Under the pieces are notes generated by a model. It ran no database searches and was not told the origin of the DNA. It was given only the letters and a program-made list of their open reading frames with translations. Of a stretch of 64,000 bases of DNA, positions 12,309 through 57,954 are shown piece after piece. The stretch is taken from the IMG/VR virus record IMGVR_UViG_3300020048_000063, positions 34,804 through 98,803 of that record; one strand, 5' to 3'. The position numbers and the translations under genes are program-made. This stretch comes from a virus. Each line of letters begins with the position of its first letter. Position 1 is the first letter of the stretch.

Positions 12309-13481
12309 TTATCTCATTAATTTTTTTACAGCATCAACAACATCTTTTGGTTGAATAGCTTTACTACAGATATAGTCCATTTTTTTAGGACAAAATAACC
12401 AATCAGAAGCATCATATAAAATATCAGGATTATTCCAGCACCCACTACACACATTAGGATTATGAACTCTAATACAATTAGATTGAAATTCATTCCATGG
12501 TTTTGTAAATCCACTTATCATAACGACTGGCGTTCCAATCGCCCATGACAACCATGCTAAACCTGAACTTAATCCTATAAACATATCAGCATGTTTAATA
12601 TCTACAATTCTTTCTATTAAAGGATGATTACCAGTTTTATCAATTACATTTTTCATTTTTGGTGCCTGATTGAAATATCCTGTTACACCAAAACTTTTAT
12701 GTTTATCTATTACAACAACTTTATAACCATTTTTAGTTAAAAAATCAAATAATCTTTCCCACCCAAAAGGATTATTCCAGTATTTAAGTTGTGCAGTAGA
12801 TTGGATAGCAACAACTACATATTTACCTCTTATTTTAGATGGTGTATCTGGAATATTTACTTTAGGTACAATTTCAACAACAGGTAAACCGAGTATTAGT
12901 GCGGCAATTGATTGTAATGATTGCTTTCTGTAATCAAAATATTTTACACAATTATCAAACTTTAAATTTTCATTGTGCCATTGTTCTGGTGCAGAAGCAC
13001 CATTAATCCGATAAAGTTCTGGACCATAATCAATTCTAAATTTTTTATCAACATCATTAACTATATTTGGATCAGAAACTGAAGTAAAAATTAAGTTTGG
13101 ATAAACTTTATCAAATAAATAATTATGTTCAGTAAAAACAACAACTTCAACATTATTAACTTTTCTATATTCTTCAACATAGGGTATCCAAGCAAGAGTA
13201 TCACCTATAGTTTTAGAACCAAATTTTATATAAACTCTATTAAATTTTTTTGCTTGTTCTCTTTGAAATAAAACTTTATCATCTAAACTAACTCTTATTA
13301 ACATATTATTAGATGATGTCTTTAATTCAGACCAAAAATTTATTTTAATATCACTTTGATATTCTATTTCATTTGTATCTAAATCTATAAAATCTACGTG
13401 ATATAGATTAGTATCATCCGATTCACCTAAAATTTCTAAATATGCTCTATCATTATTAAATATTGTAACAAAATTAACCAT
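12309..13481 (-). CDS. TibC/Aah-family (autotransporter-type) protein O-heptosyltransferase
   Basis: IGDTLAWIPY, QSTAQLKYWNNPFGW, FIGLSSGLAWLSWAIGTPVVMISGF, and Cys iron-finger-like CSGCWN...CP...CSKAI. Confidence 0.88.
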   Translation of the reverse strand: MVNFVTIFNNDRAYLEILGESDDTNLYHVDFIDLDTNEIEYQSDIKINFWSELKTSSNNMLIRVSLDDKVLFQREQAKKFNRVYIKFGSKTIGDTLAWIPYVEEYRKVNNVEVVVFTEHNYLFDKVYPNLIFTSVSDPNIVNDVDKKFRIDYGPELYRINGASAPEQWHNENLKFDNCVKYFDYRKQSLQSIAALILGLPVVEIVPKVNIPDTPSKIRGKYVVVAIQSTAQLKYWNNPFGWERLFDFLTKNGYKVVVIDKHKSFGVTGYFNQAPKMKNVIDKTGNHPLIERIVDIKHADMFIGLSSGLAWLSWAIGTPVVMISGFTKPWNEFQSNCIRVHNPNVCSGCWNNPDILYDASDWLFCPKKMDYICSKAIQPKDVVDAVKKLMR

Positions 13482-14079
13482 GCGAATTTATTTCTTTTAA
13501 TTTTTTCAATCTTATATAAGATTGAGTTTCTTGATGCTCATAATATTTCCAAATTTCTTTTAATTGTGATTCATCTTTAATTCTATGCTCATAATCATCT
13601 TTACCAATTTCAATATCAATTACATCAACATAGAAAGTCTTAGGTGTAAAAGGTAATTTTATATCTTGTTTGCTATAAATTTTTTCATTTTTTGAATTAA
13701 ATACTGAACCTGTAAAAGAAAACCCATTTTCACTTCTCCAGACTATTGCATCTATATAATATGGGTTTCCATTAATACCACATTTAAAGACAGCGGAACA
13801 ACGATTATTTTGAAATAACTCATGATCACCCACGTCAGCACAACTATTCCATTCATCTTCTGTACACATAATAGGTGCTAATGGTTCATGATTTGCTAGT
13901 TTTTCAAAATAATGAATAGCAAATGGTGCTGAACTACCAGAATGACCTTGTTTTGAAAATACTTCTAATAATTCCAATACAGATTCTTGTATCCATTTAT
14001 CTATATCATCTTCACATTCTTCAATTGGTTTATATCCTAATTTCTGAAATTCTCTTTTAGCATGTTCTAAATAACTCAT
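13474..14079 (-). CDS. Hypothetical phage protein
   Basis: 201 aa; contains QGHSGSSA; C-terminal IRLKKLKEI motif. Confidence 0.75.
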   Translation of the reverse strand: MSYLEHAKREFQKLGYKPIEECEDDIDKWIQESVLELLEVFSKQGHSGSSAPFAIHYFEKLANHEPLAPIMCTEDEWNSCADVGDHELFQNNRCSAVFKCGINGNPYYIDAIVWRSENGFSFTGSVFNSKNEKIYSKQDIKLPFTPKTFYVDVIDIEIGKDDYEHRIKDESQLKEIWKYYEHQETQSYIRLKKLKEINSHG

Positions 14080-14091
14080 ATCAACACTATT

Positions 14092-31553: not shown

Positions 31554-32009
31554 ATGAAATATTTCGCATATGGTAGTAACATGTCAGAAAATAATTTAAA
31601 AAATAGAGGTGTAATTTACTCAAAGAGACAAAAAGGTATATTAAAAGGTTATAAATTTATAATAAATAAAAAATCTTACAAAGATCCAACTATTGGTTTT
31701 GCTAATATTATTATAGATGAAAATTCTTTTGTTGAAGGTGTATTATATGATGTTAAGGAAACAGAAATACTCAAATTAGATAAATTTGAAGGATTTCCAA
31801 AACACTATTATAAATCAAAAGTTTATGTTGACATTGGAGGTTTTTTTGAAGAAGCAATCGTTTATATTGCACAAACTGAATGGACTTCTATAACAGAATT
31901 AAAAACAACAGAAGAATATAGAAATAAAATATTAGAAGGTAAAGATAGCATATCTGATGAATACTTCCAATTTCTAAATGAAAATATAAAAGTAGAAAAT
32001 GGAAATTGA
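31554..32009 (+). CDS. Gamma-glutamylcyclotransferase (AIG2-like)
   Basis: YFAYGSNM, VEGVLY, LDKFEG. Confidence 0.88.
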   Translation: MKYFAYGSNMSENNLKNRGVIYSKRQKGILKGYKFIINKKSYKDPTIGFANIIIDENSFVEGVLYDVKETEILKLDKFEGFPKHYYKSKVYVDIGGFFEEAIVYIAQTEWTSITELKTTEEYRNKILEGKDSISDEYFQFLNENIKVENGN

Positions 32010-32421
32010 AACTATAAATACAAATTTTACAATTAACTTAGATGGTATTGATGTTTATGTTACTGAAATTATAATCAGTAATGATATACAACATGGTAAT
32101 AGTAGATTTATGCAAGTTCCAACTAGACGAAGTATTTTAATTAAAGGTGAAATTTCTAATAAACAATACTACAATTTAGATAAATGGTTTAATGGAATAT
32201 TAAATAATTATAATGGATTTGGATCAAATTTTTATAAAAAAGATATAATTTTTAATACAGTTAAAATATTTGGAATTTTTCCAACTGATTATACTTTTAA
32301 TCAAAACGGTATAGATGTAAAATTTTCTGCTGATTACATTTCAGGAGATTTGCATCTATTTCGTTTAAAACAACTCCGAAAAGCAAAATTAGATAAGTTA
32401 AATGGGATTGCCACATTTTAG
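31999..32421 (+). CDS. Hypothetical protein
   Basis: C-terminal LRKAKLDKL motif. Confidence 0.7.
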   Translation: MEIETINTNFTINLDGIDVYVTEIIISNDIQHGNSRFMQVPTRRSILIKGEISNKQYYNLDKWFNGILNNYNGFGSNFYKKDIIFNTVKIFGIFPTDYTFNQNGIDVKFSADYISGDLHLFRLKQLRKAKLDKLNGIATF

Positions 32422-32632
32422 AAATATAGGTTCTGTATATAGTGTACCAGCACTATGTGAAATATGTAACGAGGCGGGAAATCATTATGGATATGGTAGA
32501 GATAGAGTGAGTGAATATAGTGAAGTACACGATTTTTGTTCTGAACACGCGGAAGAATATAAAGAAATATACAAAAAGAAAATTAGAAAAATAAAATTAG
32601 AAAAAATAAAGGAATGTCAAAAATCTTCATAA
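32402..32632 (+). CDS. Small putative Zn-binding protein
   Basis: CEIC...CSEH; C-terminal IRKIKLEKI. Confidence 0.6.
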   Translation: MGLPHFRNIGSVYSVPALCEICNEAGNHYGYGRDRVSEYSEVHDFCSEHAEEYKEIYKKKIRKIKLEKIKECQKSS

Positions 32633-34686: not shown

Positions 34687-35034
34687 ATGAGGCATATTAA
34701 AATATATGAAAATTATAAACCTAAGATACAAGAAGGTGATTATATAGTAATAAACATAAAAACAACATCTTATCAATTTGATGAATTTATAAATAATAAT
34801 ATAGGACAATTAATTTATATAGTACCATATAATACAGACTCATATTATATAAGATATGAAAACATACCAAAAATCATAAACCGCTGGTTTCATGGAAAAG
34901 ATAAATTATTACCAAGTGATCCAGACCTTGAAAATTCCAAATGTTTTAACATACATGCTATAAATATAATAGATTACGCAAAAGATAAAAGTGAATTAGA
35001 ATATATATTTGACTCTAAAAATTATAACTTATAA
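34687..35034 (+). CDS. Tagged hypothetical protein (MRHIKIYENY...KNYNL)
   Basis: Start reassigned to the ATG after late motif 34672-34681. Confidence 0.75.
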   Translation: MRHIKIYENYKPKIQEGDYIVINIKTTSYQFDEFINNNIGQLIYIVPYNTDSYYIRYENIPKIINRWFHGKDKLLPSDPDLENSKCFNIHAINIIDYAKDKSELEYIFDSKNYNL

Positions 35035-35056
35035 AAAATTCAAAATATAACTTATT

Positions 35057-35638
35057 ATGATAAAAAAATATTCAGAATATATTAAAGAATCAATTACTAC
35101 TGATATTACTGGTTTATTAGATAGTATAAATGACAAAAAAGTTGATTTTTATGCCATACATTTAGCAAATGATGAATTTACTAGTATGCCAATAGAAACC
35201 TTATATGATCATGCAGAATTTAATAAGCAGTTGTTCAAGGAAAATCTTAAAAAAGGTGAAATGGAAACTACAATGGACATTGAGAATTTTCTTAGAAAAG
35301 ATATTGACATGAAATTTTTCTTTCTTTATAGTAGAAATGAGACCATATTAAATAATCCCAATTTTTTGATTATACAATATTATAAAGATAATAAGTGGTA
35401 TCCTATTGAAATATATTCTATTAAAGGTTCAATTGAAAAATTCTACGAAAAATTAACTGCAAAAACAGTTGAACTTACACTCAATAATATAACCTATAGA
35501 TATGAAACTTCAAATTCTGGTAATAATTGGTTATTAGTAGATAAAGATAAAAAAACTGATCAATTCAAAGAAAACTTAAATACAAATAGTATTAAAGAAT
35601 TAATTCGTTCAGGTGCTAAATTAAAAATTATTGATTAA
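35057..35638 (+). CDS. Hypothetical protein with CTS-like N-terminus
   Basis: MIKKYSEYIKES. Confidence 0.75.
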   Translation: MIKKYSEYIKESITTDITGLLDSINDKKVDFYAIHLANDEFTSMPIETLYDHAEFNKQLFKENLKKGEMETTMDIENFLRKDIDMKFFFLYSRNETILNNPNFLIIQYYKDNKWYPIEIYSIKGSIEKFYEKLTAKTVELTLNNITYRYETSNSGNNWLLVDKDKKTDQFKENLNTNSIKELIRSGAKLKIID

Positions 35639-36012
35639 TGAAAAATTATAAACTTTTTTGTGAAAATAAGGTTGATGGATATTTTTACAAAATTCATTTC
35701 AATGATAAAAATGTTGAAGATTATTTAATATGTGACATAAATATGTGTGCTAAAAGTTACAGAACATTTGATATAAAATTTTTTGATTTAGTTAAAAATA
35801 GAAAAATTCAAAAAATATTATTTGGTTTCTATTTTAAAGATACTACTATACTTGCTGATATATTAGTTGGAGGTAACAGTGAAAAAGAAGAAAAATTATT
35901 AACAAATCCAACACTTAGAATATTAGCAGAAAACGAAGAACTTTATATTGATCTTTTAGAAATATTTGATCCTGATCATATCAAAGTTGCAATGAGAAAA
36001 TATAACCTATAA
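35638..36012 (+). CDS. Tagged hypothetical protein (MKNYKLFCEN...RKYNL)
   Basis: Both terminal motifs present. Confidence 0.75.
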   Translation: MKNYKLFCENKVDGYFYKIHFNDKNVEDYLICDINMCAKSYRTFDIKFFDLVKNRKIQKILFGFYFKDTTILADILVGGNSEKEEKLLTNPTLRILAENEELYIDLLEIFDPDHIKVAMRKYNL

Positions 36013-36088
36013 AAAATTGAATAAAAATATTAATATATAGAGATATAAAAAATTGAATAAAAATATTAATATATAGAGATATAAAAAA
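36008..36088 (+). repeat. 36-bp direct tandem duplication containing the late promoter motif
   Basis: TATAAAAAATTGAATAAAAATATTAATATATAGAGA at 36008-36043 and 36044-36079, plus a partial third start. Confidence 0.9.
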
Positions 36089-36101
36089 ATAAAGAAAATA
36101 T

Positions 36102-36476
36102 ATGAAACACATAAAAACATTTGAATCATTTGAAGGAACTGAACAAATAGATGAATGGTTCGGTCAAAAATTTATCACAGGACATGATAAGGGAGAAAAA
36201 GAGAATGCTAAAGCTGTTCTTATGGGTTCTATTGAAGATGCTATAGAAGAAATGGAAAGTGATTCTGAATCATATGCACATGATGATACAGAAACTTTAA
36301 GACAAGATTTAATGACATTAGCGAAACAAGATAACTATAGAGGTAGAATTGAAAAAAGAACTTCCAGAGAAAGTGGACTTATAAATATAATTTATGTACC
36401 ACAAGCAACAGGTTTACAAAATTTAGGTTCTGGTGCAGCAGCAGGTACAGGAACAAAATTAATGGGTAGATATTAA
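36102..36476 (+). CDS. Hypothetical protein with CTS-like N-terminus
   Basis: MKHIKTFESF; Gly/Ala-rich C-terminus. Confidence 0.75.
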   Translation: MKHIKTFESFEGTEQIDEWFGQKFITGHDKGEKENAKAVLMGSIEDAIEEMESDSESYAHDDTETLRQDLMTLAKQDNYRGRIEKRTSRESGLINIIYVPQATGLQNLGSGAAAGTGTKLMGRY

Positions 36477-36490
36477 AATACAAATTAATT

Positions 36491-36530
36491 AAACAAAAAA
36501 AACAAGTGAAATCACTTGTTTTTTTGTTTT
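36491..36530. terminator. Bidirectional terminator
   Basis: AACAAGTGA-aa-TCACTTGTT hairpin with A/T tails between convergent genes. Confidence 0.8.
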
Positions 36531-36970
36531 AAAATTTCTAACTCTATAGGCAACAGAGAATCTATTGAATTTGAACTTATCCTATCTAAAATATTATCCT
36601 TTGTTATATTATACTCAATATAACTATTTAATATAGTATTATTATTTTCCTCTGAATATAACTCGAAAAAGTTTTTATCACTATTAATAAAATCAATAAT
36701 ATTATCAACCCTTCCAAATTTAATTAACATTTTATGCTTCCTGAAAAATTCAATTAATTTTGCAACTTTATAATCATCTACAAAAGTAAGATAAATTGAT
36801 TTATCATCAATATCAAGACCAGTAATGGCATCACTATCCTCTGGTTCTAAAAATTGAGAGACATTTTCTACAAATTCTTTTTCTAATTCTGGATTATTTC
36901 TTACTGTAATATGATACAAATCATTTGCAATATTTGTTGTTTTTTTGTTCACGAAGTCCATTATGAGCAT
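36512..36970 (-). CDS. Hypothetical protein with C-terminal DUF6576-like helix pair
   Basis: DNILDRISSNSIDSLLPIELEIL; early promoter at 37007-37014. Confidence 0.6.
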   Translation of the reverse strand: MLIMDFVNKKTTNIANDLYHITVRNNPELEKEFVENVSQFLEPEDSDAITGLDIDDKSIYLTFVDDYKVAKLIEFFRKHKMLIKFGRVDNIIDFINSDKNFFELYSEENNNTILNSYIEYNITKDNILDRISSNSIDSLLPIELEILKQKNK

Positions 36971-37038
36971 ATTCTTTTCTCCTGTATATTAATTAGTTAC
37001 ATAAGCCAAAATTATAACTTTTTTACAAATAAAAAAAA

Positions 37039-37794
37039 TCAAATTTTAGATTTTATTTTTTTTAATGCTAAATCGCATTGTTTTCCACTTATTTCACTAC
37101 CAATAAAATTACATTTTTTTTCTATGGAACCTAAAGCTGTGGTACCAACACCCATGAAATTATCATAAACCAAATCTCCTTCATTACCATATAAATCAAT
37201 AAGTTTGACAACTAAATCTGTTGAAAAAGTTGCCTTATTTAAATCATTAGATCCATCGTTATTTTTAGCCTCAATATAATTATCAACTATTTGATAGTAT
37301 TTTTGACCTCTTTCAGAAACAGAAGTAACTAATTTAAACATCTTAAACGTTTTTACCTCTTTTTTTCTAGCAAAAACCCAAATAAATTCAAAAATCCTAT
37401 TAAGTCTATTATAGCTTGCTGGATGTGGCATAGACGTGTTCTTTTTCCAAAGTATAGTATCAACTATTTCCCAATTTGTATTTTCAACAATTTTAGATGC
37501 TAATTTGTACGGTAGAGATGGATTCTCAATAGAGTAACTAAAATTGTAAAGTACAACTCTATTTTCTTTCACAACTTTATCATAATTATTGAAAATCTCA
37601 ATTGTCCAATCTATATATTCAGATTCATTCATATTATCCCTGTATTGGTCATACTTTCCCATATCAGACGGTCCACCTTTTCTTTTTTTTGAAAAATTGT
37701 ATGGCGGTGAAGTAATCACCAAATCAACAAAATTTGGTGGCATATTATTCATAGTAGTTAAACAATCTTCATTGTATATCGTATTTATATTCAA
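37039..37794 (-). CDS. Beta-class amino (N4-C/N6-A) DNA methyltransferase
   Basis: ITSPPYN motif IV precedes DNFMGVGTT motif I. Confidence 0.9.
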   Translation of the reverse strand: MNINTIYNEDCLTTMNNMPPNFVDLVITSPPYNFSKKRKGGPSDMGKYDQYRDNMNESEYIDWTIEIFNNYDKVVKENRVVLYNFSYSIENPSLPYKLASKIVENTNWEIVDTILWKKNTSMPHPASYNRLNRIFEFIWVFARKKEVKTFKMFKLVTSVSERGQKYYQIVDNYIEAKNNDGSNDLNKATFSTDLVVKLIDLYGNEGDLVYDNFMGVGTTALGSIEKKCNFIGSEISGKQCDLALKKIKSKI

Positions 37795-37839
37795 TTTTCA
37801 TCTTATTTTTTTTATATATAGAAAAAAAGATTTCTAAAG

Positions 37840-38529
37840 ATGATAGTTTATAAAAAAATAAATGAATATTTAGATAATAAAGAAAAAGGTGAATATCAAC
37901 AATTGATTGACTATACCAAAATTTCAGATAATTTAAGTAATGACCATATTAAAGAATTGTGTAAAGAAGCAGAAAATAACAATTTTTATTCAATTTGTAT
38001 TTTACCAAATGCTATATCAACCGCGCATTCATTTTTAAAAGGTGTCAAAATAGTTGCATTAATAGATTTTCCAAAGGGAGAAAGTGATATAAAACAAAAA
38101 ATAAGTGAAATTGATGAAACTATTGTAAATGGTGCAAGTGAAGTTGATGTTGTTATTAATTATAAACTTGTTAAAGATCCTGAAGAACATGAAAAGTTAG
38201 AAAAAGAGATAAGAGAATTAACAGAATATTGCCATCGTGAAAGTATAATAGTTAAAATTATAATTGAAATGGGAGCATTAAATTATCAAGAATTAGAAAC
38301 TATCTGTAAAATGTGTAGTGAAAACAATGCTGATTTTATAATGACTTCAACTGGAAAATTACCAAAAGACGATCCATTTGAAACAAAAGTTGAAAAGGTA
38401 AAATTTATGAGAAAAATATTACCAGATGAAATGAAAATTAAATTTTCTGGTGGTATTAGAACTATAGAACAAATCAAAGAATTAAAACCACTTGTTGATA
38501 GAATCGGCACAAGTGTAATTCCACAGTAA
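37840..38529 (+). CDS. deoC: Deoxyribose-phosphate aldolase-like protein (Schiff-base Lys replaced by Met)
   Basis: IDYT, DFPKG, GASEVDVVIN, VKIIIE, ADFIMTSTG, IKFSGGIRT, RIGTS. Confidence 0.85.
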   Translation: MIVYKKINEYLDNKEKGEYQQLIDYTKISDNLSNDHIKELCKEAENNNFYSICILPNAISTAHSFLKGVKIVALIDFPKGESDIKQKISEIDETIVNGASEVDVVINYKLVKDPEEHEKLEKEIRELTEYCHRESIIVKIIIEMGALNYQELETICKMCSENNADFIMTSTGKLPKDDPFETKVEKVKFMRKILPDEMKIKFSGGIRTIEQIKELKPLVDRIGTSVIPQ

Positions 38530-38531
38530 TT

Positions 38532-39014
38532 ATGAAATATTTAAAACTATTTGAAAGTAAAAGAGATGTAGTAGAGAATCAATTAATGAAAATAATTATA
38601 TTTGAAGAAAAAGGATTTGATAGTTATTTATATAAAAATTTTTATAAAGATAAATCTTTTGGAAACTTATATACTATTAATTTTGTAAATGATGATAATT
38701 TCACACCACTAACAGCGGCAGTTTATTATGAAAGAACTGAAATTTTAGAAAAACTTATAAAATTTGGTGCAAATGTAAATTATACAAATGAAAATGGTGA
38801 AACTCCATTAATGGTAGCAGCAACAGAAAACAACTTAGATATGTTAAGGATATTGACTGATAACGGTGCAGATTGGAATAAAAGAAATATAAGTGGAAAT
38901 GATTTTTTTGATTGTTTATTTGACGCTGAGTATGAACAGATACTTATAGAAGAATATCCGAAAAAATATGAAGATTATATTATAAAAAAAGATGCAAAAA
39001 AGTATAATTTATGA
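38532..39014 (+). CDS. Ankyrin repeat protein, dual-tagged (MKYLKLFES...KKYNL)
   Basis: TPLTAAV..LIKFGANVN, GETPLMVA..GADWN. Confidence 0.85.
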   Translation: MKYLKLFESKRDVVENQLMKIIIFEEKGFDSYLYKNFYKDKSFGNLYTINFVNDDNFTPLTAAVYYERTEILEKLIKFGANVNYTNENGETPLMVAATENNLDMLRILTDNGADWNKRNISGNDFFDCLFDAEYEQILIEEYPKKYEDYIIKKDAKKYNL

Positions 39015-39394
39015 AACATCTAAAATTATATGAAGAAACATTTCCAGTTCCAACAGAAGAAGAATTAGAAAAATATGATATCAAAGTTGGGAATTATGTC
39101 ATTGCAAATGAAAATTTTTTCAATTCAATTAGAAATCCATATTTTATTAATGAGTTGATTACTAAAGAAATAGGAAAAGTAGATAAAATTTTTATTAGCA
39201 ATAAGGGATATAGAAATGAGCAGGTTTATTGTAGTGTTCGGTATACTAATATACCAGAAAGTATTTTAAAGCATATTAGTAATAAACCAGCCACGTTTAT
39301 ACATTCTATTAGGATTGATGATCTGAGAAAAGTATCACCAGAGGAATTTGAAAAGTATCAATTATCAAAAGTCGCAAATAAATATAACTTGTAA
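39011..39394 (+). CDS. Tagged hypothetical protein (MKHLKLYEE...NKYNL)
   Basis: Both terminal motifs; similar in layout to 34687-35034. Confidence 0.75.
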   Translation: MKHLKLYEETFPVPTEEELEKYDIKVGNYVIANENFFNSIRNPYFINELITKEIGKVDKIFISNKGYRNEQVYCSVRYTNIPESILKHISNKPATFIHSIRIDDLRKVSPEEFEKYQLSKVANKYNL

Positions 39395-39422
39395 TTTTTT
39401 TATTAAAATAAAAACAATATCT

Positions 39423-39761
39423 TTGATAACAATTTATAAAAGTTTTATGGAATCCAATCTTTCAAATGATTTAAAATCATATGCTGAATATCTTTTAGAT
39501 AAATATATAAAATCTCCGAACTCAACAGAAGATAGTGGATTTTATCTTAGACTAAAACAATTTTGTGAAGAAGGTAGAATCAAAGGAATACTCAGTAAAA
39601 ATGACAAGGTTACAACAAAAATTGATATATTAAATATATGTGGTAATGACTTAAGAAAAGTTTTAGGAGTTGACAATGATACATTTGAAGATTTTCAATT
39701 AAGAAGATATAATCCAAATGAATATAAATTGCAAAAGGATGTAAAAAAATATAATTTATGA
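39423..39761 (+). CDS. Hypothetical protein ending KKYNL (start TTG 39423 or ATG 39447)
   Basis: The TTG start gives a CTS-like MITIYKSFMES but overlaps an early promoter motif (TATCTTTG, 39418-39425). Confidence 0.65.
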   Translation: MITIYKSFMESNLSNDLKSYAEYLLDKYIKSPNSTEDSGFYLRLKQFCEEGRIKGILSKNDKVTTKIDILNICGNDLRKVLGVDNDTFEDFQLRRYNPNEYKLQKDVKKYNL

Positions 39762-40405
39762 TAACACATTTTAACAAATTTCTTATGAACGAATCACTTA
39801 ATCATTTTGATCTCAGTAAACTAGTCACAATTGTTAATATAAAACAGGATAATGAAGGTAACTGGATTTATACAACAAAAGATAATAGACAACTTACTTT
39901 ACCAAAAGAACAAGCAAATAAAATAACCTTAGTAGATAGTAAACTTGCAGATTTTGTAAATAATGGGCATCCAATTACAAAGTATTTTGAACTTGATTTA
40001 GATACTATCATTTATGCCGCAAATTTTGCTGTTGATGCAATAGCAATGAGAGAAGGTAGAGTATATTTAATTGAACGAAAAGATGGTCGCGGTTGGGCAA
40101 TTCCTGGTGGATTTATTGATGCCGGTGAAACACCAGAACAAGCAGCATTAAGGGAATTACAAGAAGAAACATTAGCAAAACCAAAAGATATTAAGAGTGT
40201 TGAATCATTAGGAATGTTTAAAACTAGTGATCCAAGAGAAATTGATTTTTTCTCTTTTATATTTGTTTTTCAAATTAAAGCTTCTGCTGAATTAAAATTT
40301 GCTGATGATGCTACAAATGGAAAATGGTTACTATTAAGTAGGGCAATTAAAAGCAAATTAGCTTTTCCACATCACAACGATTTTCTAAAAAAAGTTACTT
40401 ATTAA
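39758..40405 (+). CDS. NUDIX hydrolase with CTS-like N-terminus
   Basis: Nudix box GGFIDAGETPEQAALRELQEET, DPR, ADDA. Confidence 0.88.
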   Translation: MITHFNKFLMNESLNHFDLSKLVTIVNIKQDNEGNWIYTTKDNRQLTLPKEQANKITLVDSKLADFVNNGHPITKYFELDLDTIIYAANFAVDAIAMREGRVYLIERKDGRGWAIPGGFIDAGETPEQAALRELQEETLAKPKDIKSVESLGMFKTSDPREIDFFSFIFVFQIKASAELKFADDATNGKWLLLSRAIKSKLAFPHHNDFLKKVTY

Positions 40406-41075
40406 TTTTCTCTTTTTCCCTTTTCATTGGTAATGGTGGAGATATTTTAAATTCTCTATTTAAATATCTTCTAAATTCATTTTCAACATAATAAGGTGGT
40501 ACAACTTTATTATCATTCTCTTTTTCCATTTTAGTTGCTAACATATATGCAAAACTTATAATATGTTCTCTTCTCACCATATTTATTAATCCTTTTTCTA
40601 CAGCAAAGGATTTATAAAACCAATCATCATAAAAATGCACAAACTCACCCTCACTAATATCAATTGCTTTTATTATTATACCTGACATAAAACTTTTATA
40701 ATCAACTTTCTTCACAAGCATAATAGGTACTAAAATTTTTATTAATGCCCTTGAACCACCTAAAAATTGTGAAACTACCCATAAAGGAAGATATATAAAA
40801 GCTAATGCTAAAGGAATTGCTCTATGAAGAAACTTAAAAATACCTTGTAAATATTCTCTATTTTCCTTAAATTTTATAGCATCTGAGTGAAGTGCCTTTA
40901 ATACTCCGAATGTTAGTTTTTTACCACTTGCTAATTGATTATATAATTTCCCTTGCTTTGCTACTTCTTTAATCTTTTTTAATTCTTCATCACTTTTAAA
41001 ACTAAAAATATTGGAAATATCAATAGAAGTAAAGTCATATATATCATCAACAAATTCATAAAGTTTTATAATCAT
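40395..41075 (-). CDS. Hypothetical protein with hydrophobic hairpin
   Basis: MIIKLYEF start; late motif at 41081-41090. Confidence 0.7.
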   Translation of the reverse strand: MIIKLYEFVDDIYDFTSIDISNIFSFKSDEELKKIKEVAKQGKLYNQLASGKKLTFGVLKALHSDAIKFKENREYLQGIFKFLHRAIPLALAFIYLPLWVVSQFLGGSRALIKILVPIMLVKKVDYKSFMSGIIIKAIDISEGEFVHFYDDWFYKSFAVEKGLINMVRREHIISFAYMLATKMEKENDNKVVPPYYVENEFRRYLNREFKISPPLPMKREKEKINK

Positions 41076-41094
41076 AGCATTATATATAAAAAAA

Positions 41095-41922
41095 TTATAA
41101 TGATTTTAACATAGCAATTAAATTAGGTTGAGGACTCATGTCAGTCTTATCCGTTCTTATATTAGTATGAGTCCACACACCTGGATAACCATTCATTGTT
41201 AATGGATTATACTCAAATGCTGTTCTACCAATTGATTGTATTGCATATGCAGTATTTTCTCCCCAACTACCATCTTCTGATAAAGGTTTACCGTTTTTAC
41301 CAACAAATCCATTTTTATTCAACCATTTTTGTTGATCCATAATTGATAAATTATTTGGCATAATTAATGTCTCCTTTTTTATCCATTCAACCAAGCCCAT
41401 TTTTAAATTTATACCAAATTTAGTACCTAAAGAAACTAATAATGTCCTCAAACTATCTAATTGTTTATCTGTATATTTATGATAATACTTAAATCCTCTG
41501 AAAGGTTTTGATAATTCAACAACCTGATCTGCAGGCACAGGAGTATTCACATAAGTCATAAATTGTCCAGTTTTTGATAATGTTAAATTTCCATAATTAC
41601 AGACTTCTATTCCTATTGAAATTTTATCAAATAAACCATTGGTACCTTTTACACCAAGATGGAATGCCCATTGACTTTCAGGAAAACATCTAACAACAAC
41701 ACCATCCCAAGTAATATCATTATCTCTGGTACTCTTACCGCCTATAACATATGGTACAGCAATTTTTCTAGTTGAGCCATCTTCATTTTTATCTTTGTTC
41801 CAACTTTGTACAACCCAATCAGGTCTATGACTACCAGCAGTATGATGTAAATAAATTATACTTTTTTTAATATCATTAGAGAAGTATTCGTCAGAATCTA
41901 AAAAAATATCTTTAATATTCAT
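41095..41922 (-). CDS. N-acetylmuramoyl-L-alanine amidase (Amidase_2), putative endolysin
   Basis: LHHTAG, WAFHLG, SIGIEVCN, THTNIRTDKTD; inserted peptidoglycan-binding-like segment DGSWGENT. Confidence 0.85.
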   Translation of the reverse strand: MNIKDIFLDSDEYFSNDIKKSIIYLHHTAGSHRPDWVVQSWNKDKNEDGSTRKIAVPYVIGGKSTRDNDITWDGVVVRCFPESQWAFHLGVKGTNGLFDKISIGIEVCNYGNLTLSKTGQFMTYVNTPVPADQVVELSKPFRGFKYYHKYTDKQLDSLRTLLVSLGTKFGINLKMGLVEWIKKETLIMPNNLSIMDQQKWLNKNGFVGKNGKPLSEDGSWGENTAYAIQSIGRTAFEYNPLTMNGYPGVWTHTNIRTDKTDMSPQPNLIAMLKSL

Positions 41923-41933
41923 ATTTTTATTTA

Positions 41934-43538
41934 TTATTTTTTGACATTACTATTAACATATAAAAATGTTGGCGGCTGAATAGTATTGTTATCCGTTATA
42001 TCATTATCATAGAGTTGTTCGTTTTTTAATGTATTTAAATCTTGTGTATTTTTATACACCCTTTCACCTTTTAATTTATGGTCAACATCTACATCCTCAT
42101 ACAATAATGTTGATTCCATTCTTCTTTTTATTGTTATATTTTTATAAACTTCTTCATTATTTAATGAAGTGATTTTATCTTCTGAATTTTTAAATAGTGA
42201 TTCATTATGTAATAAAGTTTTCTTATCGGGAACATTATCAAAAACAGTTTCTCCCTTTAGTGTTTTATTTGAATCTTTATTTCTATAAACATTTTCATTT
42301 TCCAATCTATTTGTAGAATCAATATTTTGATAAACAAACTCTTTTGGTGTATGACGGCTAACATTTACATTTTTATAAACTTCTTCGTTTTCTAATAAAT
42401 TATTTGAATCTTTATTTCTATAGACATTTTCATTTTCTAATTTGTTTGTAGAATCAATATTTTGATAAACAAATTCATTTGGTGTATGACGATTGACATT
42501 TATATTTTTATAAACATTCTCATCTTTCAAAGCATTATTAGAATCTTTGTTTTTATACGCATACTCATTTTCTAATCTATTTGTAGAATCAATGTTTTTA
42601 TAAACATTTTCATCTTTTAAAATATTATTAGAATCTTTATTCTTGTAGACATCTTCATTTTCTAATTTATTATTAGAATCTTTATTTTTATAGACATCTT
42701 CATTTTCTAATCTATTTGTAGAGTCAATGTTTTTATAAACTTCTTCATTATTTAAAGTAGAATTATCTCCAACATTATCATAAACTTTTTCACCATTCAA
42801 TGTAATTACATTATCAACATTATCATAAACTGTTTCACCATTTAATGTACCATATTCTTCAACATTAACATATACGGTCTCACCTGCTAGTGTACCATTT
42901 TCTTTTATATTATCATAAACCGTTTCTCCATTTAAAGTATTATTATCGTTAACATTTGTAAAAAGATTCTCACCATTTAAAACATTATTCACTCCTACAC
43001 CATAAAAAAGATTTTCATCATTTAAAGTATTATTTACTCCTATACCATAAAAAAGAGTCTGATTTTCTGGTGTCTTATTTCGCTGTCTATCTTTTTCTTT
43101 TACATTATCATAATCAACCATATCAGTAAATGGTGGATTATATACAACTTCACCGTGTAATTTATTATTTATTCCTATACCATTGTAAACAACTTCACCG
43201 TTTGGTGTTTTATTTCTTGCATCTTTTTCAGTAGGATTATCATAATCCATCATAGGAGTAAAAGGAGGATTATAAACAACTTCACCTTTTGGTGTTTTAT
43301 TTCTATCCAACCCAAACTCATTTTTCAAATCATCATAATCAATAAAATTAGTATTACCATAAAGTTTACTACCATTTAATGTTTTGCCTCTTTTTTTATC
43401 TTTTTCACTTAAATTATCATAATCAACAAATATTGTTTTTCCATAAAGAACTTGTCCTTCTGGTGTTTTATTTAATAGTGCGTGATTATTAACAACTATT
43501 CTATCAATTACATTTGAATTTTTAGTATCATTAGACAT
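41934..43538 (-). CDS. Repeat protein with 15-aa LxxExVYxN repeats
   Basis: More than 20 tandem units such as LENEDVYKNKDSNNK. Confidence 0.8.
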   Translation of the reverse strand: MSNDTKNSNVIDRIVVNNHALLNKTPEGQVLYGKTIFVDYDNLSEKDKKRGKTLNGSKLYGNTNFIDYDDLKNEFGLDRNKTPKGEVVYNPPFTPMMDYDNPTEKDARNKTPNGEVVYNGIGINNKLHGEVVYNPPFTDMVDYDNVKEKDRQRNKTPENQTLFYGIGVNNTLNDENLFYGVGVNNVLNGENLFTNVNDNNTLNGETVYDNIKENGTLAGETVYVNVEEYGTLNGETVYDNVDNVITLNGEKVYDNVGDNSTLNNEEVYKNIDSTNRLENEDVYKNKDSNNKLENEDVYKNKDSNNILKDENVYKNIDSTNRLENEYAYKNKDSNNALKDENVYKNINVNRHTPNEFVYQNIDSTNKLENENVYRNKDSNNLLENEEVYKNVNVSRHTPKEFVYQNIDSTNRLENENVYRNKDSNKTLKGETVFDNVPDKKTLLHNESLFKNSEDKITSLNNEEVYKNITIKRRMESTLLYEDVDVDHKLKGERVYKNTQDLNTLKNEQLYDNDITDNNTIQPPTFLYVNSNVKK

Positions 43539-43984
43539 TAACTAGATCTTCTTTTTTTAATCATCTCCTGAATATATTGATCAGCAGGCAATTTAATATC
43601 TGGGTCTTTTCTATTAACCAATTCTTCTTTCGTATTATCTTTTATACCTTCTTTTTCATTTATTTCTTTAACAATAGATGCTAAATATGTTTCTGGACTT
43701 ACTTTTGAATCTTCATTTGTATAAACTAATCCATATATACTTTCATCATTGAAAATATAAAATTCATTATTAGGCAAAGTAAAATCCTGATAAAACATTA
43801 ATTTACCTATTGTACCATATGTTAATATTTGTTTACCTGTCATATTTAAATATTTTAACATAAAAGCATCTTTTATATGAATTTTTTCTTCCTTCAAAGA
43901 AATTAAATTTATACCTAAATCCATTTTGAATATAGGTATTTTTCTAAATATATTTAACATTTGGGTGTTTGCTACTACTATCAT
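43538..43984 (-). CDS. Hypothetical protein
   Basis: 148 aa, in a late operon. Confidence 0.7.
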   Translation of the reverse strand: MIVVANTQMLNIFRKIPIFKMDLGINLISLKEEKIHIKDAFMLKYLNMTGKQILTYGTIGKLMFYQDFTLPNNEFYIFNDESIYGLVYTNEDSKVSPETYLASIVKEINEKEGIKDNTKEELVNRKDPDIKLPADQYIQEMIKKRRSS

Positions 43985-44550
43985 TGTTCGTGAATATCAT
44001 CTTTTAAATCATTCTCATCTACACCAGTATCATCAGATTTATCTTTTAATTGACCTAATTTATCAATCATAAAATCCTCTTTAATATCCTCAACTTTTAC
44101 TTCCTCTACCAATTCTCCTTTTTCTTTATTATTCTCATCAAATTGATGAATTTTTAAAAGAACTTTATTAATTTCTAAATTTTTACCCTCGGCTGGGGGA
44201 GTTGCGGCTGGAGCTTCACCCTGACCTTGAGCAGGAGGTTGTGTTTGTTGAGTTTGTGCTTGTGCTTCATCACCTTTCATTTCATCAAGTCTTATCATAA
44301 AAATAACTCTATATCTCATTGATGTTCCTTCTTCTTCTTCACCTTCTTTTATTGGTTCTGTAAAATTAAATATTAGGAATTTTTCCATTGGATTATAATT
44401 AGAAATTTGAATATCTCCATCCAATTCACAACCCTGAGCACCTAATGAACCATCTGTAAACCATTTTTCAATTTGTGCTTCTAATTCCTTAAAAAAAACT
44501 GAAATTTTATAATCAGCTGATTCAACGTATTCTTCAAATAATTTCCTCAT
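43981..44550 (-). CDS. Hypothetical acidic protein with CTS-like N-terminus
   Basis: MRKLFEEYVES; Q/P/A-rich linker; late motif at 44572-44581. Confidence 0.75.
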   Translation of the reverse strand: MRKLFEEYVESADYKISVFFKELEAQIEKWFTDGSLGAQGCELDGDIQISNYNPMEKFLIFNFTEPIKEGEEEEGTSMRYRVIFMIRLDEMKGDEAQAQTQQTQPPAQGQGEAPAATPPAEGKNLEINKVLLKIHQFDENNKEKGELVEEVKVEDIKEDFMIDKLGQLKDKSDDTGVDENDLKDDIHEQ

Positions 44551-44625
44551 AATTGTTAATTAATTTTACTCTATATATAAAAATCATGTTCATTAAAATC
44601 AAAAATGAAAATTAATATATATTAT

Positions 44626-45342
44626 ATGAAAATTTTAAAAGAATCAGAAGTCTCATCAGGAAATGCGAGCGGAAAAGCAGGTGTAGCATCACTTCCGTTC
44701 AATAAAGGATATTATTCTTCTGGTAACAATGGATCACCAGGTATAGAATTTACTCCAAAAGGTGAACCAAGTTTCAAAACATACAAAAGTATGAAGCATT
44801 CAAAAAAGAATGTTAAAGAAAAAAGAGAAAAAATGAAAAAATTTAGAGAATTCGCAAAAGAATCAGTAAACTACGAAAATCTAGAAATTAGAGGAATCAA
44901 TTTCATTGATGATAATGAAGGTTATGTTAAAATAGAAATGGATGGTAAACAAAAAATGGAGCATTTTAGTATTAATCACGCTGGGTATGTTCATTTTCAA
45001 CTTTTTCATCCAGAACAAAATTATTATCAATTAGTTCAATATGTATATGAACAAATGCCAGAATGCAATTTAAAAACTAAAGTTCTTGATAATTATGAAG
45101 AAGTTTTTCAGTTAGAAACATTAACCGAAGAAGCTTCTGCAACTATGGGTAATACAGGTGGTATGGGTGCTGTTGTGTCGGCACAACCATCAAGTACACC
45201 AGGTGATGTTGCAGGTGGAACAAAAGGTTCTGGTGATATTGGACAAACACTTGGTACTTATACTAAACCAGGAATAAAAATGAAAAAGGATAAAAAGAAA
45301 AAAAGAAAAATAGAATCTTTTGATAATTTTAAAATAAAATAA
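44626..45342 (+). CDS. Hypothetical protein with repeated CTS-like motifs
   Basis: Start reassigned to follow late motif 44612-44621; MKILKES, MKKFREFAKES, KIESFDNF. Confidence 0.7.
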   Translation: MKILKESEVSSGNASGKAGVASLPFNKGYYSSGNNGSPGIEFTPKGEPSFKTYKSMKHSKKNVKEKREKMKKFREFAKESVNYENLEIRGINFIDDNEGYVKIEMDGKQKMEHFSINHAGYVHFQLFHPEQNYYQLVQYVYEQMPECNLKTKVLDNYEEVFQLETLTEEASATMGNTGGMGAVVSAQPSSTPGDVAGGTKGSGDIGQTLGTYTKPGIKMKKDKKKKRKIESFDNFKIK

Positions 45343-45351
45343 AAAATCCAT

Positions 45352-46101
45352 ATGAAAATAGAAAGATTTAATCAAATAAATGAGTCTTCTCATAACGAAT
45401 TTTTGAATCATTATAGTGATGATATACAGAAATCTATCATTTTATTAGTAAAATTAAAAAATTTTTTCATTGAAGCTGAACATAACGATGAAAATATTAC
45501 TGATGAACTTGGTGAACTTGGTGAAAAAATAGAAAATAGACTTAGTGTTTATGATAAAAATGTACCATCAAAAATAGATGAATGGATTTATGATACTCCA
45601 ACACCAGATGAAATTGTTGAATTCGCAATAAGAAACCAATATAAATGGGGAACTGAACCGCAAATGGTATTATACGCAATTGAAGATTATGCAACAGAAT
45701 GTGGAATATATCCTGATGATGAGGATGATATTGATGAAAATGAGAATGAAGATGAATTTTATGAAGGCTCTTTTCAATTTGATAAAGAAGAAGTTGATGA
45801 ACCAAAAAATGAGAATATTGAATTATTTGAAAATTTTGAAACCAGTTATACTTATGAATGTAGTGGTTCACCTAGTCCAACATTTAGAGTTAAAGCAGAC
45901 TTTTTTGAATTTATGGCTAATCATGGATTTAAACACACCACATTAACCAAAAAAACTAACATGCTAATTGTGGAAGATAAAGATATGGGTACTTTAAAAT
46001 GTCAAAAAGCACAAAAATATGGTGTACCAATTTATACATATAGAGAAGCAAAGAAAAAGGTTATAGCATTAGCAGAAGACATGGAAAAATATAATTTATA
46101 A
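45352..46101 (+). CDS. Dual-tagged protein with C-terminal BRCT-like domain
   Basis: MKIERFNQINES...LTKKTNMLIV..KCQKAQKYGVPIYTY...EKYNL. Confidence 0.75.
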   Translation: MKIERFNQINESSHNEFLNHYSDDIQKSIILLVKLKNFFIEAEHNDENITDELGELGEKIENRLSVYDKNVPSKIDEWIYDTPTPDEIVEFAIRNQYKWGTEPQMVLYAIEDYATECGIYPDDEDDIDENENEDEFYEGSFQFDKEEVDEPKNENIELFENFETSYTYECSGSPSPTFRVKADFFEFMANHGFKHTTLTKKTNMLIVEDKDMGTLKCQKAQKYGVPIYTYREAKKKVIALAEDMEKYNL

Positions 46102-46104
46102 CTT

Positions 46105-46473
46105 GTGAGATACATAAAAACATACGAAAAATTTTTCATAAAAAAAGTCTGGAACAAAATACTAGATCCAGAAAGTGATTTAAAAGAAATTGAGGCATCT
46201 TGGAATATGCATGAAATCCCTGTGTTACAAAAATATGGAAAAATAACTGAAGATACATTTGAATATAACTCTGTTATGAGTAATCTTTCAATAAAAATTA
46301 AAAAAATATATGTGGAAGAAGCATTTGGATATACACCAGCAACATTTAAGGTAAATGTTAGCAATGATAGAGGTATATATCGTAAAACATTTACAGATTT
46401 TAATGATGTAATAAAACTTATGGAAAAATTGATTCCAAAAGAAGAAATAGACGCAAATAAATATAATCTATAA
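46105..46473 (+). CDS. Tagged hypothetical protein (MRYIKTYEKF...NKYNL)
   Basis: GTG start; both terminal motifs. Confidence 0.75.
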   Translation: MRYIKTYEKFFIKKVWNKILDPESDLKEIEASWNMHEIPVLQKYGKITEDTFEYNSVMSNLSIKIKKIYVEEAFGYTPATFKVNVSNDRGIYRKTFTDFNDVIKLMEKLIPKEEIDANKYNL

Positions 46474-46523: not shown

Positions 46524-46829
46524 ATGGAAAAAGTAGATAAAGTTACATATGAAATGTCGGGTCCTCCACCGAAATGGTTATGGTATCATAAAGCAGACTT
46601 TGAGAGTGATATGTTGAAATGGGGATATTCTCATACCACATTGAATAAAAATACTGATATGTTAATTGTAGAATCAAAAGATTTAGGTACATTAAAATGT
46701 CAGAAAGCAGAAAAATACGGTATACCTATATACACTTATAAAGAAGCATTTGATAGAAAAGAAAAATTATACACAAGAGTAATTAGGAAAAAAAGATTAG
46801 ATAATATAAATAAAAACAGAGAAGAATAA
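46524..46829 (+). CDS. Stand-alone BRCT-like domain protein
   Basis: Paralog of the 45352 C-terminus; LigA-type KTDxLIV..K..KAxxLGIPI pattern; ends IRKKRLDNI. Confidence 0.75.
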   Translation: MEKVDKVTYEMSGPPPKWLWYHKADFESDMLKWGYSHTTLNKNTDMLIVESKDLGTLKCQKAEKYGIPIYTYKEAFDRKEKLYTRVIRKKRLDNINKNREE

Positions 46830-51335: not shown

Positions 51336-51351
51336 AAGATGAATATTAATT

Positions 51352-51417: not shown

Positions 51418-51615
51418 ATGCTAATTATAGAGATAAAAAAAGGAGAAAGTATTGATGTTGCTTTGAAGAGATTAAAGAACAAATTCAAAAGAATTAAGAT
51501 TACAGAAGAATTAAGAGAAAGAAAGACTTTTGAAAAACCATCGGAAGTTAAAAGAAAAGAAAAAAAGAAAGCTATTTATATTCAAAAACTAAAAAATCAA
51601 GAAGATAATTCCTGA
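51418..51615 (+). CDS. rpsU: Ribosomal protein bS21
   Basis: MLIIEIKKGESIDVALKRLKNKF...ELRERKTFEKPSEVKR..KKAIY; Bacteroidota-like. Confidence 0.92.
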   Translation: MLIIEIKKGESIDVALKRLKNKFKRIKITEELRERKTFEKPSEVKRKEKKKAIYIQKLKNQEDNS

Positions 51616-52133
51616 TTTTTTAAATTTTCTTCTTCTTGTTCCTTTTTTAAGTTTTCCATTATTTCTCGCAATTTATCTCTCCTAAGATAAATATTTGCTT
51701 CTTTATAAATTTCATCCTCAGACATTTTACGAACTTTATTATTTAGGTCAATAAACAATTCATTGACAAAACTTTTTGTACCATACATCTGCCACCTACG
51801 ATTAGAACAAAGAACAGGTAAATATTCATCATTAAATTGCGGTTTCATTATATAATAATTTATTGCAGATTCAACTTCCCAACGAAATTTCTTTTTAGTT
51901 TTAGATATTATTTCAGAATAAACATCATTCCAATCACAACCAATCTTAGATTCAATAAAATTTCTAATTGGACTTGTATCAATACTATTCCATCTATATC
52001 CTCTTTTCATTGATTTATGAAAAGGTAATTCATCATTATAATCAATATTTTTATCATGATCATACTGAAACCAACATTTTGAATGTTTTTGTTTGTTTCT
52101 TAATTTTCTATGAAGACATTTTTCTTTTATCAT
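51597..52133 (-). CDS. Hypothetical protein
   Basis: FIESKIGCDWNDVYSEI; LRRDKLREI near the C-terminus. Confidence 0.7.
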   Translation of the reverse strand: MIKEKCLHRKLRNKQKHSKCWFQYDHDKNIDYNDELPFHKSMKRGYRWNSIDTSPIRNFIESKIGCDWNDVYSEIISKTKKKFRWEVESAINYYIMKPQFNDEYLPVLCSNRRWQMYGTKSFVNELFIDLNNKVRKMSEDEIYKEANIYLRRDKLREIMENLKKEQEEENLKNQELSS

Positions 52134-55526: not shown

Positions 55527-55636
55527 TTTTTTATATTATTTTTACGTTATATATAAAAAAATATATAGTTTATTTTACAAAAAATAGGGTTTTTCAATTT
55601 TATATTTTATATATAAGGAAAAAAATAATTAATATA

Positions 55637-56671: not shown

Positions 56672-56692
56672 TAAAACTAGGATTTTTTGTTT
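56656..56692. terminator. Bidirectional terminator
   Basis: AAACAAAAAATCCTAGT-aaa-ACTAGGATTTTTTGTTT between convergent genes. Confidence 0.85.
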
Positions 56693-57173: not shown

Positions 57174-57199
57174 TATATTTTGTTTTTTAGTTATTGTTT

Positions 57200-57586
57200 T
57201 TATTCTTGAGGAAAAAATTCATCAATAGATAAAAGTTCATCAACAGATAAATTCATCAATAAAGAATGTAACGTATCTTCGTTAATATTTCTTAGTTTTA
57301 CTATTAGTTGATCAACGAGAGGTTTTTTAGCAAGTTTTTCAAGTTTTAGTTTTCTATCTTCTTTTATATATGATAATTTGCCTTCCCAATATAAATCTAT
57401 TACATCCTTACATTCTTTTAAACCACCACTTGTATATTCTTTCAATGCTTTTACACTTGCAAGTTTGGCATTTGTCCTGGTAAATTCTACAAATTCATCT
57501 TTATGTTGATAAATTGCTTTACATGCTCTATCAAAAAAAATATCATCAATATTAATTGTGCCAAATTTAGTATTAAAAGTTTTCAT
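57200..57586 (-). CDS. Protein with ribosomal bL12 C-terminal-like domain
   Basis: KLASVKALKEYTSGGLKECKDVID; early promoter at 57612-57619. Confidence 0.65.
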   Translation of the reverse strand: MKTFNTKFGTINIDDIFFDRACKAIYQHKDEFVEFTRTNAKLASVKALKEYTSGGLKECKDVIDLYWEGKLSYIKEDRKLKLEKLAKKPLVDQLIVKLRNINEDTLHSLLMNLSVDELLSIDEFFPQE

Positions 57587-57642
57587 GATTTTTTCTATGA
57601 TTATTGTTCTACAAAAGTATGAAAAATTCTATAATAAAAAAA

Positions 57643-57954
57643 TTATTTGTACAATTTTTTCAATTTCATTTTTCTGATAATTTTAATACCATTTAAAATT
57701 TCTACATAATCAAAAATAAATGAATCTCCCTCAATCTTTTTTGCAACATATACTGTATTATATAAAATAAAAAGAAAATAACTTTCCTGAAAAAGAGGAT
57801 GATCCTGTTTTATTCTTTCATTTAATTGAAAAGTTTTTAATTTGAATAAATAAGATTTAAAAATCTCACTTTTAGTTTTTAAGTCAATTGGATTTTTATT
57901 CCTTATATGAAAGTTTATATCCTTAACAAAATCATATGATTGATAGGTTGACAT
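57643..57954 (-). CDS. Hypothetical protein
   Basis: C-terminal IRKMKLKKL. Confidence 0.65.
   Translation of the reverse strand: MSTYQSYDFVKDINFHIRNKNPIDLKTKSEIFKSYLFKLKTFQLNERIKQDHPLFQESYFLFILYNTVYVAKKIEGDSFIFDYVEILNGIKIIRKMKLKKLYK

Follow-up and report, generated by a model that had tools for sequence, protein, structure and literature searches.

A portable basic helix, predicted near the C-termini of unrelated proteins, is the hallmark of one lineage of AT-rich phages

Why should proteins that are otherwise unrelated, encoded on one stretch of phage DNA, end in nearly the same short basic peptide? The stretch (hereafter the window) comprises 64,000 nucleotides (nt), bases 34804-98803 of a 98.8-kb virus contig of 28% GC (IMG/VR record IMGVR_UViG_3300020048_000063). 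The peptide, of the form R-K-x-K-L-x-x-[I/L], was first noticed from the letters and open reading frames (ORFs) alone. This sequence-only reading proposed a short basic amphipathic helix that gives non-packaged proteins an alternative address by binding a common hub, nucleic acid or membrane, or by acting as a degron. Here we show that the element, which we call the RK tag, is conserved as protein, sits on unrelated bodies and characterizes one phage lineage that is widespread in metagenomes. We tentatively favour its reading as a helix that docks its carriers on, or addresses them to, a single abundant, putative partner. Throughout, G000 denotes this contig, G001 and G002 its relatives, L with a number a fetched locus and P with a number a metagenomic protein.

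All seven peptides listed by the sequence-only reading are present in the window (Table 1), and its list is complete: the sole other match, RRRKINPT in ribonucleotide reductase, looks like chance. The positions that it gave are the low ends of the ORFs rather than those of the motifs. Five of the six terminal tags end 2-7 residues from the stop and one ends 20 residues from it, and the internal copy lies 43 residues away. A scan of the whole contig added eight tagged genes upstream of the window, for about 15 carriers in all, and yielded a longer consensus, [FY]-x-[ST]-x-x-E-[ILY]-R-K-x-K-L-x-K-[IL]-N, followed by a few residues and the stop. In about 30,000 residues the strict form, RK.KL..[IL], was counted 10 times, where 2,000 whole-protein shuffles predict 0.14; 7 of these copies lie near a C-terminus, where the shuffles predict 0.02. 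A local test permuted only the last 25 residues of each protein, so that local Lys-richness was kept; over 20,000 shuffles the strict motif was expected in 0.04 proteins and found in 8, the loose motif was expected in 0.25 and found in 12, and the observed counts were never reached. The positional enrichment that the sequence-only reading proposed to test therefore holds, and the K/L-rich composition that it had named as grounds for refutation does not account for the motif, because shuffles that preserve Lys-richness fall so far short.

The tag is not confined to this contig. A degenerate DNA pattern for R-K-x-K-L-x-K-I-N matched at least 119 stretches in IMG/VR, nearly all on contigs of 21-27% GC and in proteins of 55-140 amino acids (aa), and 61 of the 80 in-ORF matches lie no more than 11 residues from the stop. 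In 185,579 cellular genomes, by contrast, only 17 of 120 matches to the identical pattern fell in an ORF, without C-terminal clustering, most of the matches being out of frame or broken by stops; the fetched loci held 305 tagged ORFs in the viral set and 7 in the cellular set. Some viral loci are near-pure arrays: L037 has the tag on 19 of its 25 ORFs and L004 on 22 of 51. Scans of whole records gave 57 matches in G002 and 16 in G001 (1 and 2, respectively, with the reversed pattern), none in T4 or Tenacibaculum phage PTm1, and a single match in the 735-kb megaphage LR756501, equal to its reversed-pattern control. In G002 the tag is present on 90 of 459 predicted genes and on 85 of the 301 small ones. 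A profile of the SH3-like body plus tail reached E ≤ 1e-3 for 4363 representative proteins out of 1.84 billion; its best 150 matches include 119 short proteins, of which 116 carry the tag. The motif is thus characteristic of a single phage lineage. No cultured phage is known to carry it, because T4, PTm1 and LR756501 are without the motif and a tblastn search of GenBank phages with one array member returned no match.

Databases offer no name for it. Scanned against Pfam and PHROGs, 7 window proteins and 27 relatives gave matches on the bodies only and no family over the tail; PF27001 (Phage_T4_Y07B), which is found on one match and on 16% of one nearby Atlas cluster, was missing from the Pfam copy scanned. 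A profile search of the PDB with the tail alignment gave nothing significant (best 5gjl, E 0.29), the ESM Atlas returned unnamed viral clusters only, and searches of the literature on conserved C-terminal motifs of small phage proteins, KYNL and Tad3 did not turn the motif up. Among the tagged proteins of G002, the ten longest had no Pfam match and displayed no functional theme. The tag is therefore undescribed in Pfam, PHROGs, the PDB and the literature searched.

The tag is also portable: after removal of the tail, 226 tagged proteins fell into 165 BLAST clusters of bodies. One body in the window, encoded directly downstream of the ribonucleotide reductase gene by ORF 13474-14079, is homologous to Tad3 over its full length (PF25185, E 3e-35; PDB 9b7d, E 1.3e-25, query residues 2-181 against chain residues 2-189 of 194). 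Tad3 inhibits the ThsB sensor of Thoeris (PMC13728456), and by homology the window protein would be an anti-Thoeris protein. Its tag lies past the end of the solved fold. The solved protein, like homologues of 40-42% identity on contigs of 35% GC, ends at a YY..-motif just before the tag, whereas the window protein adds a 20-residue RK tail that is kept, in degenerate form, by orthologues of 65-67% identity on AT-rich contigs. The BRCT-like body of ORF 46524-46829 matches phrog_3869 (NAD-ligase C-terminus, E 6e-6) and shares 63% identity, over 68 aa, with a stretch of ORF 45352-46101, whose own ending is KYNL.

Homologues of the window proteins retain the tag at 35-40% body identity. That of ORF 32402-32632 in L116 (40%) keeps LRKEKLEKI and that of ORF 51597-52133 in L019 (35%) keeps VRKLKLQEI; the L013 homologue of ORF 31999-32421 keeps RKEKLEKI, and L019 also encodes a homologue of ORF 57643-57954, at 63% identity over residues 1-90, and one of ORF 57200-57586 with ERADKLERL at the site of the internal motif. 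Further afield, a gp32-like single-stranded (ss)DNA-binding protein (L004:5514-6095), which scores 30.5 bits with PF08804 (gathering cut-off 26.8), ends in IIRKEKLKELSNL; it has the basic RK tag where T4 gp32 has an acidic partner-binding tail. Other carriers are Cys-rich or helical, five have transmembrane segments, and a very large class is SH3-like, its model giving only weak SH3 and chromo-barrel matches in a fold search (best E 0.15).

Table 1. Tagged ORFs of the window and the tandem array of proteins with an internal motif.
Feature	Coordinates	Strand	Residues before stop	ORF and body
IRLKKLKEI	13489..13515	-	4	13474-14079 (201 aa; residues 2-181 Tad3 fold, 182-201 added tail)
LRKAKLDKL	32374..32400	+	6	31999-32421 (140 aa)
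IRKIKLEKI	32582..32608	+	7	32402-32632 (76 aa; Cys-rich body, weak zf-FCS match)
IRKKRLDNI	46782..46808	+	6	46524-46829 (101 aa; BRCT-like body)
LRRDKLREI	51660..51686	-	20	51597-52133 (178 aa)
IRKMKLKKL	57652..57678	-	2	57643-57954 (103 aa)
DRKLKLEKL (internal)	57332..57358	-	43	57200-57586 (128 aa; weak L7/L12-CTD-like body)
Tandem array	L010:633-6885 (also L110, L060, L009)			at least 13 paralogues of 132-168 aa

What is conserved is the amino-acid sequence, under purifying selection on the protein, because the Leu codons at position +4 vary as in the background (TTA/TTG/CTT/CTA make up 58/12/19/10% there and 64/13/13/7% in the remainder of these genes) and each of the two variable positions spans an entire codon. 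The Ile/Leu position is coded by ATA, ATT, TTA and CTA, and the invariant Arg codon, AGA, includes a G where translation-initiation regions are G-poor. Because the codons vary, we rejected a repeat or a recombination signal in the DNA as the thing conserved.

A logo built from 211 distinct tagged proteins, numbered from the Arg, has Arg at 0 (100%), Lys at +1 (93%) and +3 (99%), Leu at +4 (90%), Lys at +6 (67%), Ile or Leu at +7 (100%) and Asn, a common C-cap, at +8 (54%), with +2 and +5 variable. Upstream, positions -6, -4 and -1 are hydrophobic, -5 is Ser, Thr or Asp (classical N-cap residues) and -2 is Glu, as in a capping box; aromatic residues preceding the motif are also conserved. AlphaFold2 places a confident helix at residues 66-80, after the barrel, in the SH3-like family (pLDDT 84) and at residues 35-46, after a β-hairpin, in an unrelated family whose motif is internal (pLDDT 87), and in both it begins four residues before R0. 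The tag is accordingly modelled as a short, capped α-helix of 12-13 residues in which R0 and K3 are invariant. On a helical wheel, -4, -1, +4 and +7 would form one hydrophobic arc with R0 and K3 inside it, and x2 and x5, the latter two often Glu, would lie opposite and form i/i+4 pairs with K6 and K1. The helix has a net charge of about +3.7, a mean hydrophobic moment of 0.25 and a mean hydrophobicity of 0.05; the mean charge of the tail is +3.8. The description of the tag as a short basic amphipathic helix is thus sound as to the charge; amphipathic it is only weakly, with R0 and K3 sitting within the hydrophobic face.

Its placement near the C-terminus, also claimed at the outset, describes most carriers and is not strict. 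In one family the motif occupies residues 38-46 of at least 19 sampled paralogues, with some 100 residues after it; 13 of these paralogues stand in tandem at a single locus, and R0 and K3 do not vary here either. These proteins, typified by those of L010, have an N-terminal helix and hairpin, the RK helix and a C-terminal domain in the model, which has no significant fold match in the PDB (pLDDT 87, pTM 0.79). In P0081 (150 aa), as in P0030, P0033 and P0042 (133-156 aa), two SH3-like units are joined in one frame; each unit of P0081 retains its own RK tag, so that the tag can lie between domains.

A second tag is found in the same genomes. It combines a leader, MK[YH][ILV]K.[FY]E (for example, MKYIKTFE), with the ending K[YF]N[LI]-stop, and 16 proteins of this contig carry it (at 34687-46473 in the window and in the contig as a whole). 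In G002 (loci L252-L264), 62 of 459 proteins end in K[F/Y]N[L/I], and 50 of the 54 that start with MK[YH][ILV]K.[FYL] have that ending (P 2e-50). The final Leu or Ile codon and the TGA seem to form the ATG of the next gene (TTATGA or ATATGA), as it appears from a view of the arrays and not from the DNA itself. The two tags avoid one another. The 90 RK-tagged proteins of G002 share one member with the 62 of the ending class (Fisher P 1.8e-5) and none with the 54 of the leader class (P 4.9e-6); in G000, none of the 12 RK-tagged proteins has the MK[YH][ILV]K leader and there is no overlap with YNL ends. Orthologue pairs between this contig and G002 keep their class (two RK-RK, five YNL-FNL and no swaps), and about one third of the G002 genes carry one or the other tag. 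The disjointness asserted by the sequence-only reading, and the exclusivity with YNL that it suggested checking, are both borne out. Promoter-like elements upstream of the two classes, a possible guide to temporal class, were also tallied in G002, by definitions that are crude for a genome of 22% GC: 47 of the 62 K[YF]N[LI] genes stand behind TTTTTTATATATA-type (TATATA-type) elements, and of the RK class 16 genes stand behind host-type TAnnTTTG, 20 behind TATATA-type elements and 58 are unassigned.

The strongest case for sorting or docking comes from this mutual exclusivity, and a portable tag on up to 20% of genes appears to be explained most economically by an address or shared-partner function. 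We propose that, in one very AT-rich lineage of large phages, many unrelated, fast-evolving accessory proteins have acquired or retained the helix. Its conserved face (hydrophobic -4, -1, +4 and +7, with R0 and K3) would dock the carriers onto one shared, putative partner, with the variable face (x2 and x5, frequently a Glu that pairs with K6 and K1) turned to solvent. The partner would probably be abundant, because up to 90 different proteins of one phage carry the tag, and anionic; examples would be nucleic acid and a protein lattice or hub that offers an acidic-hydrophobic groove. As an address, the tag may gather non-structural proteins (anti-defence, SSB-like and many SH3-like binders) at one place. 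Of the alternative address first proposed, this retains a real, protein-level element near the C-terminus of unrelated proteins, disjoint from the CTS-like/YNL class, and drops the membrane variant, given the weak moment. Several points weigh against docking. The partner is hypothetical, and the conserved face could instead pack on each protein's own body; 90 proteins competing for a single site would be odd for a low-copy hub; the known bodies have no obvious common functional theme; and the association of the tag with gene junctions, described below, leaves room for a role there. It is doubtful that the two tags together amount to a sorting code for a third of the proteome, in which the MKYIKTFE...K[Y/F]N[L/I] class would go to the virion and the RK helix would bring dozens of anti-defence and host-takeover proteins together at one intracellular site or on one abundant partner.

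Packing on the carrier itself defines another explanation, which we consider unlikely: a strand-turn-helix, [FY][FYI][STD]xxE-phi-RKxKLxK-phi-N, that caps and stabilizes small domains with no common partner, and that persists by descent from one SH3-plus-helix ancestor and by the exchange of 3′ ends through recombination in tandem arrays. The largest class of carriers is indeed one huge SH3-like family, AlphaFold predicts the helix confidently as part of compact models, the upstream aromatics are conserved, and chromo-barrel proteins, which consist of a barrel and a C-terminal helix, are among the weak fold matches. However, the tag is also found on unrelated complete folds (BRCT-like, gp32-like, helical and membrane proteins, and Tad3, whose solved fold ends before it), distant homologues of Tad3 fold without the tail, and an invariant Arg and Lys amid the hydrophobic face are unexpected for packing on 165 different bodies.

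Mixed bodies, membrane proteins included, would equally suit a degron, which is indifferent to what its carrier does. The tag might thus be a signal for turnover or remodelling that is read by a host or phage AAA+ machine of the ClpX, Lon or FtsH type, for timed degradation or to flood the protease. A precedent is the basic C-terminal tag of MuA, the transposase of phage Mu, whose terminus RRKKAI-COOH is the 'C-motif 2' recognized by ClpX; the charge of the RK tail (+3.8) is in keeping with it. Against this, the tag has no defined free C-terminus, since 0-11 variable residues follow it and it is internal in one family, and it forms a well-capped, stable helix in the models rather than a disordered tail. 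The position at the extreme C-terminus that C-motif 2 and ssrA-type signals share was not found either, the tag ending a median of 5 codons before the stop. We regard this explanation as quite unlikely.

The RK tag is also associated with gene junctions. The next start lies within 20 nt in 83% of tagged genes and in 49% of the other small ones, and for 69 of 240 coupled genes (29%) the next ATG begins exactly 1 nt after the tag; Asn at +8 is partly explained by this overlap, which reads AAT-G. In the window, ORF 31999-32421 has this arrangement, the next ATG after ORF 32402-32632 lies 5 nt downstream, and the gene downstream of ORF 46524-46829 is not coupled. The tail could accordingly act at the junction, as nascent peptide in the exit tunnel or as A-rich mRNA, to promote termination-reinitiation in a host without Shine-Dalgarno (SD) initiation. 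Such a function would scale naturally to 20% of genes, and SD-like cores are nearly absent (10 of 135 genes), in leaders that are A-rich (55-64% A) and G-poor; Ile at +7 favours ATA (75% against 49%) and Asn at +8 favours AAT. Yet the mRNA itself is not conserved, as Leu codons follow the background and the Arg codon with its G is invariant, and conservation of the N-cap and capping box makes sense only in a folded protein. Moreover, a coupled gene downstream is lacking for 48 of 288 tagged genes and for four of the window's seven, the internal-motif paralogues carry the tag distant from any stop, and the spacing to the stop varies (median 15 nt, or 5 codons; 10th-90th percentile 9-27 nt). A junction function therefore seems very unlikely; the tight spacing is more readily seen as compaction, in which the next gene would begin right past the functional end of the preceding protein.

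Targeting to the membrane, in the manner of the C-termini of MinD and FtsA, is highly improbable and was rejected. The tag is a basic C-terminal helix with hydrophobic residues, but its moment and hydrophobicity are low beside those of MinD (0.41 and 0.27) and FtsA (0.61 and 0.41; both values for unverified reference peptides), Arg and Lys interrupt the hydrophobic arc so that there is no clean apolar face, and some carriers already have transmembrane segments. Chance in an AT-rich genome rich in Lys, Leu and Ile is a negligible prospect and was likewise rejected: although Lys makes up 13.9% of the last 25 residues against 9.3% of the rest of the proteins, the local shuffles, the lack of an in-frame C-terminal bias in AT-rich cellular DNA and the reversed-pattern control (1 match against 57 in G002) all speak against it.

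In its logic the docking or address helix resembles several known systems; by comparison of their features, it appears to share the defining ones of none. Short C-terminal docking peptides tether clients to a hub in the case of the β-clamp motif QL[SD]LF, the XB tail of SspB, which binds ClpX, and the acidic tip of SSB. The RK tag likewise is a short, portable element near the C-terminus, a constant tail on varied bodies; it is unrelated to these in sequence, is a basic, capped helix rather than an extended or 3-10 peptide at the very end, and its hub is hypothetical. Neither form of the β-clamp consensus (Q-L-[SD]-L-F or Qxx[LIM]xxF[FY]) was found in the logo, which has no Gln or Phe core. 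The MuA tag is basic and sits at the C-terminal end of a phage protein, where a host machine reads it, but it occupies the extreme terminus, whereas the RK helix has trailing residues, may be internal and follows a fixed hydrophobic pattern. Another address label common to unrelated phage proteins is the capsid targeting sequence (CTS) of T4, an N-terminal peptide cleaved after [L/I]xE. The lineage has its own CTS-like class (MKYIKTFE...), but the RK tag lies at or near the C-terminus and the two classes exclude one another; a T4-type leader was found on 0 of 12 RK-tagged proteins in G000 and 0 of 90 in G002. Poxvirus ankyrin/PRANC (F-box-like) and SOCS/BC-box proteins follow a similar logic only, in which a variable binder carries a constant C-terminal helix that recruits one host machine; they belong to eukaryotic-virus families, with another fold and partner and no sequence relation. 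R-K-x-K resembles the basic core, K-[KR]-x-[KR], of a monopartite nuclear localization signal, which binds importin in extended form, whereas the RK residues lie in a predicted helix with obligatory Leu and Ile. The positive charge of the tail (+3.8) is shared with C-terminal signals for type IV secretion, a non-specific feature.

Around the tags lie genes for T4-like functions and others of the myovirus type. The window encodes a gp5-like baseplate hub with lysozyme, a UvsX/RecA-like protein and a DnaB-like helicase, as well as ribonucleotide reductase, RtcB and PPK2, and the closest relatives of a conserved 588-aa protein are in the uncultured megaphage records LR756501-LR756504 and in PTm1. 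In G002, TATCTTTG-type (TAnnTTTG) elements are common upstream of operons. The host is probably one of the Bacteroidota, because the expression signals (scarce SD, A-rich leaders and TAnnTTTG elements) are of the type found in that phylum and because of the megaphage and PTm1 relatives. The 98.8-kb contig is probably a genome fragment. The lineage may consist of very large phages, perhaps megaphages, because CheckV puts G002, a contig of 256 kb and 22% GC that was fetched in full, at only 36% completeness. Two other genes of the window stand out. One (59135-61975, - strand) encodes a 946-aa protein made up mostly of collagen triple-helix repeats (PF01391, E 5e-116) and sits where the GC content climbs to 42% (60-64 kb), against 25-30% in the rest of the window; the other (7626-9284, + strand) encodes a DUF2201-type putative metallopeptidase with a VWA-like domain.

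Short terminal tags on unrelated proteins usually mark sorting or hub docking, as signal peptides, clamp motifs and capsid-targeting sequences do. The RK tag marks about 11% of the genes of this contig, 20% of those of its 256-kb relative and thousands of metagenomic protein clusters, and the Tad3 homologue among its carriers links it to counter-defence, Tad3 being an experimentally validated anti-Thoeris protein. The identity of the partner would place hundreds of phage proteins now called 'hypothetical' in a cellular context in one step, and the tag could serve as a portable tool in work on Bacteroidota phages and their hosts. The existence of two disjoint classes makes an intracellular sorting code in large phages directly testable; if the two-tag reading is true, it would be a protein-sorting code that operates inside a bacterial virus infection.

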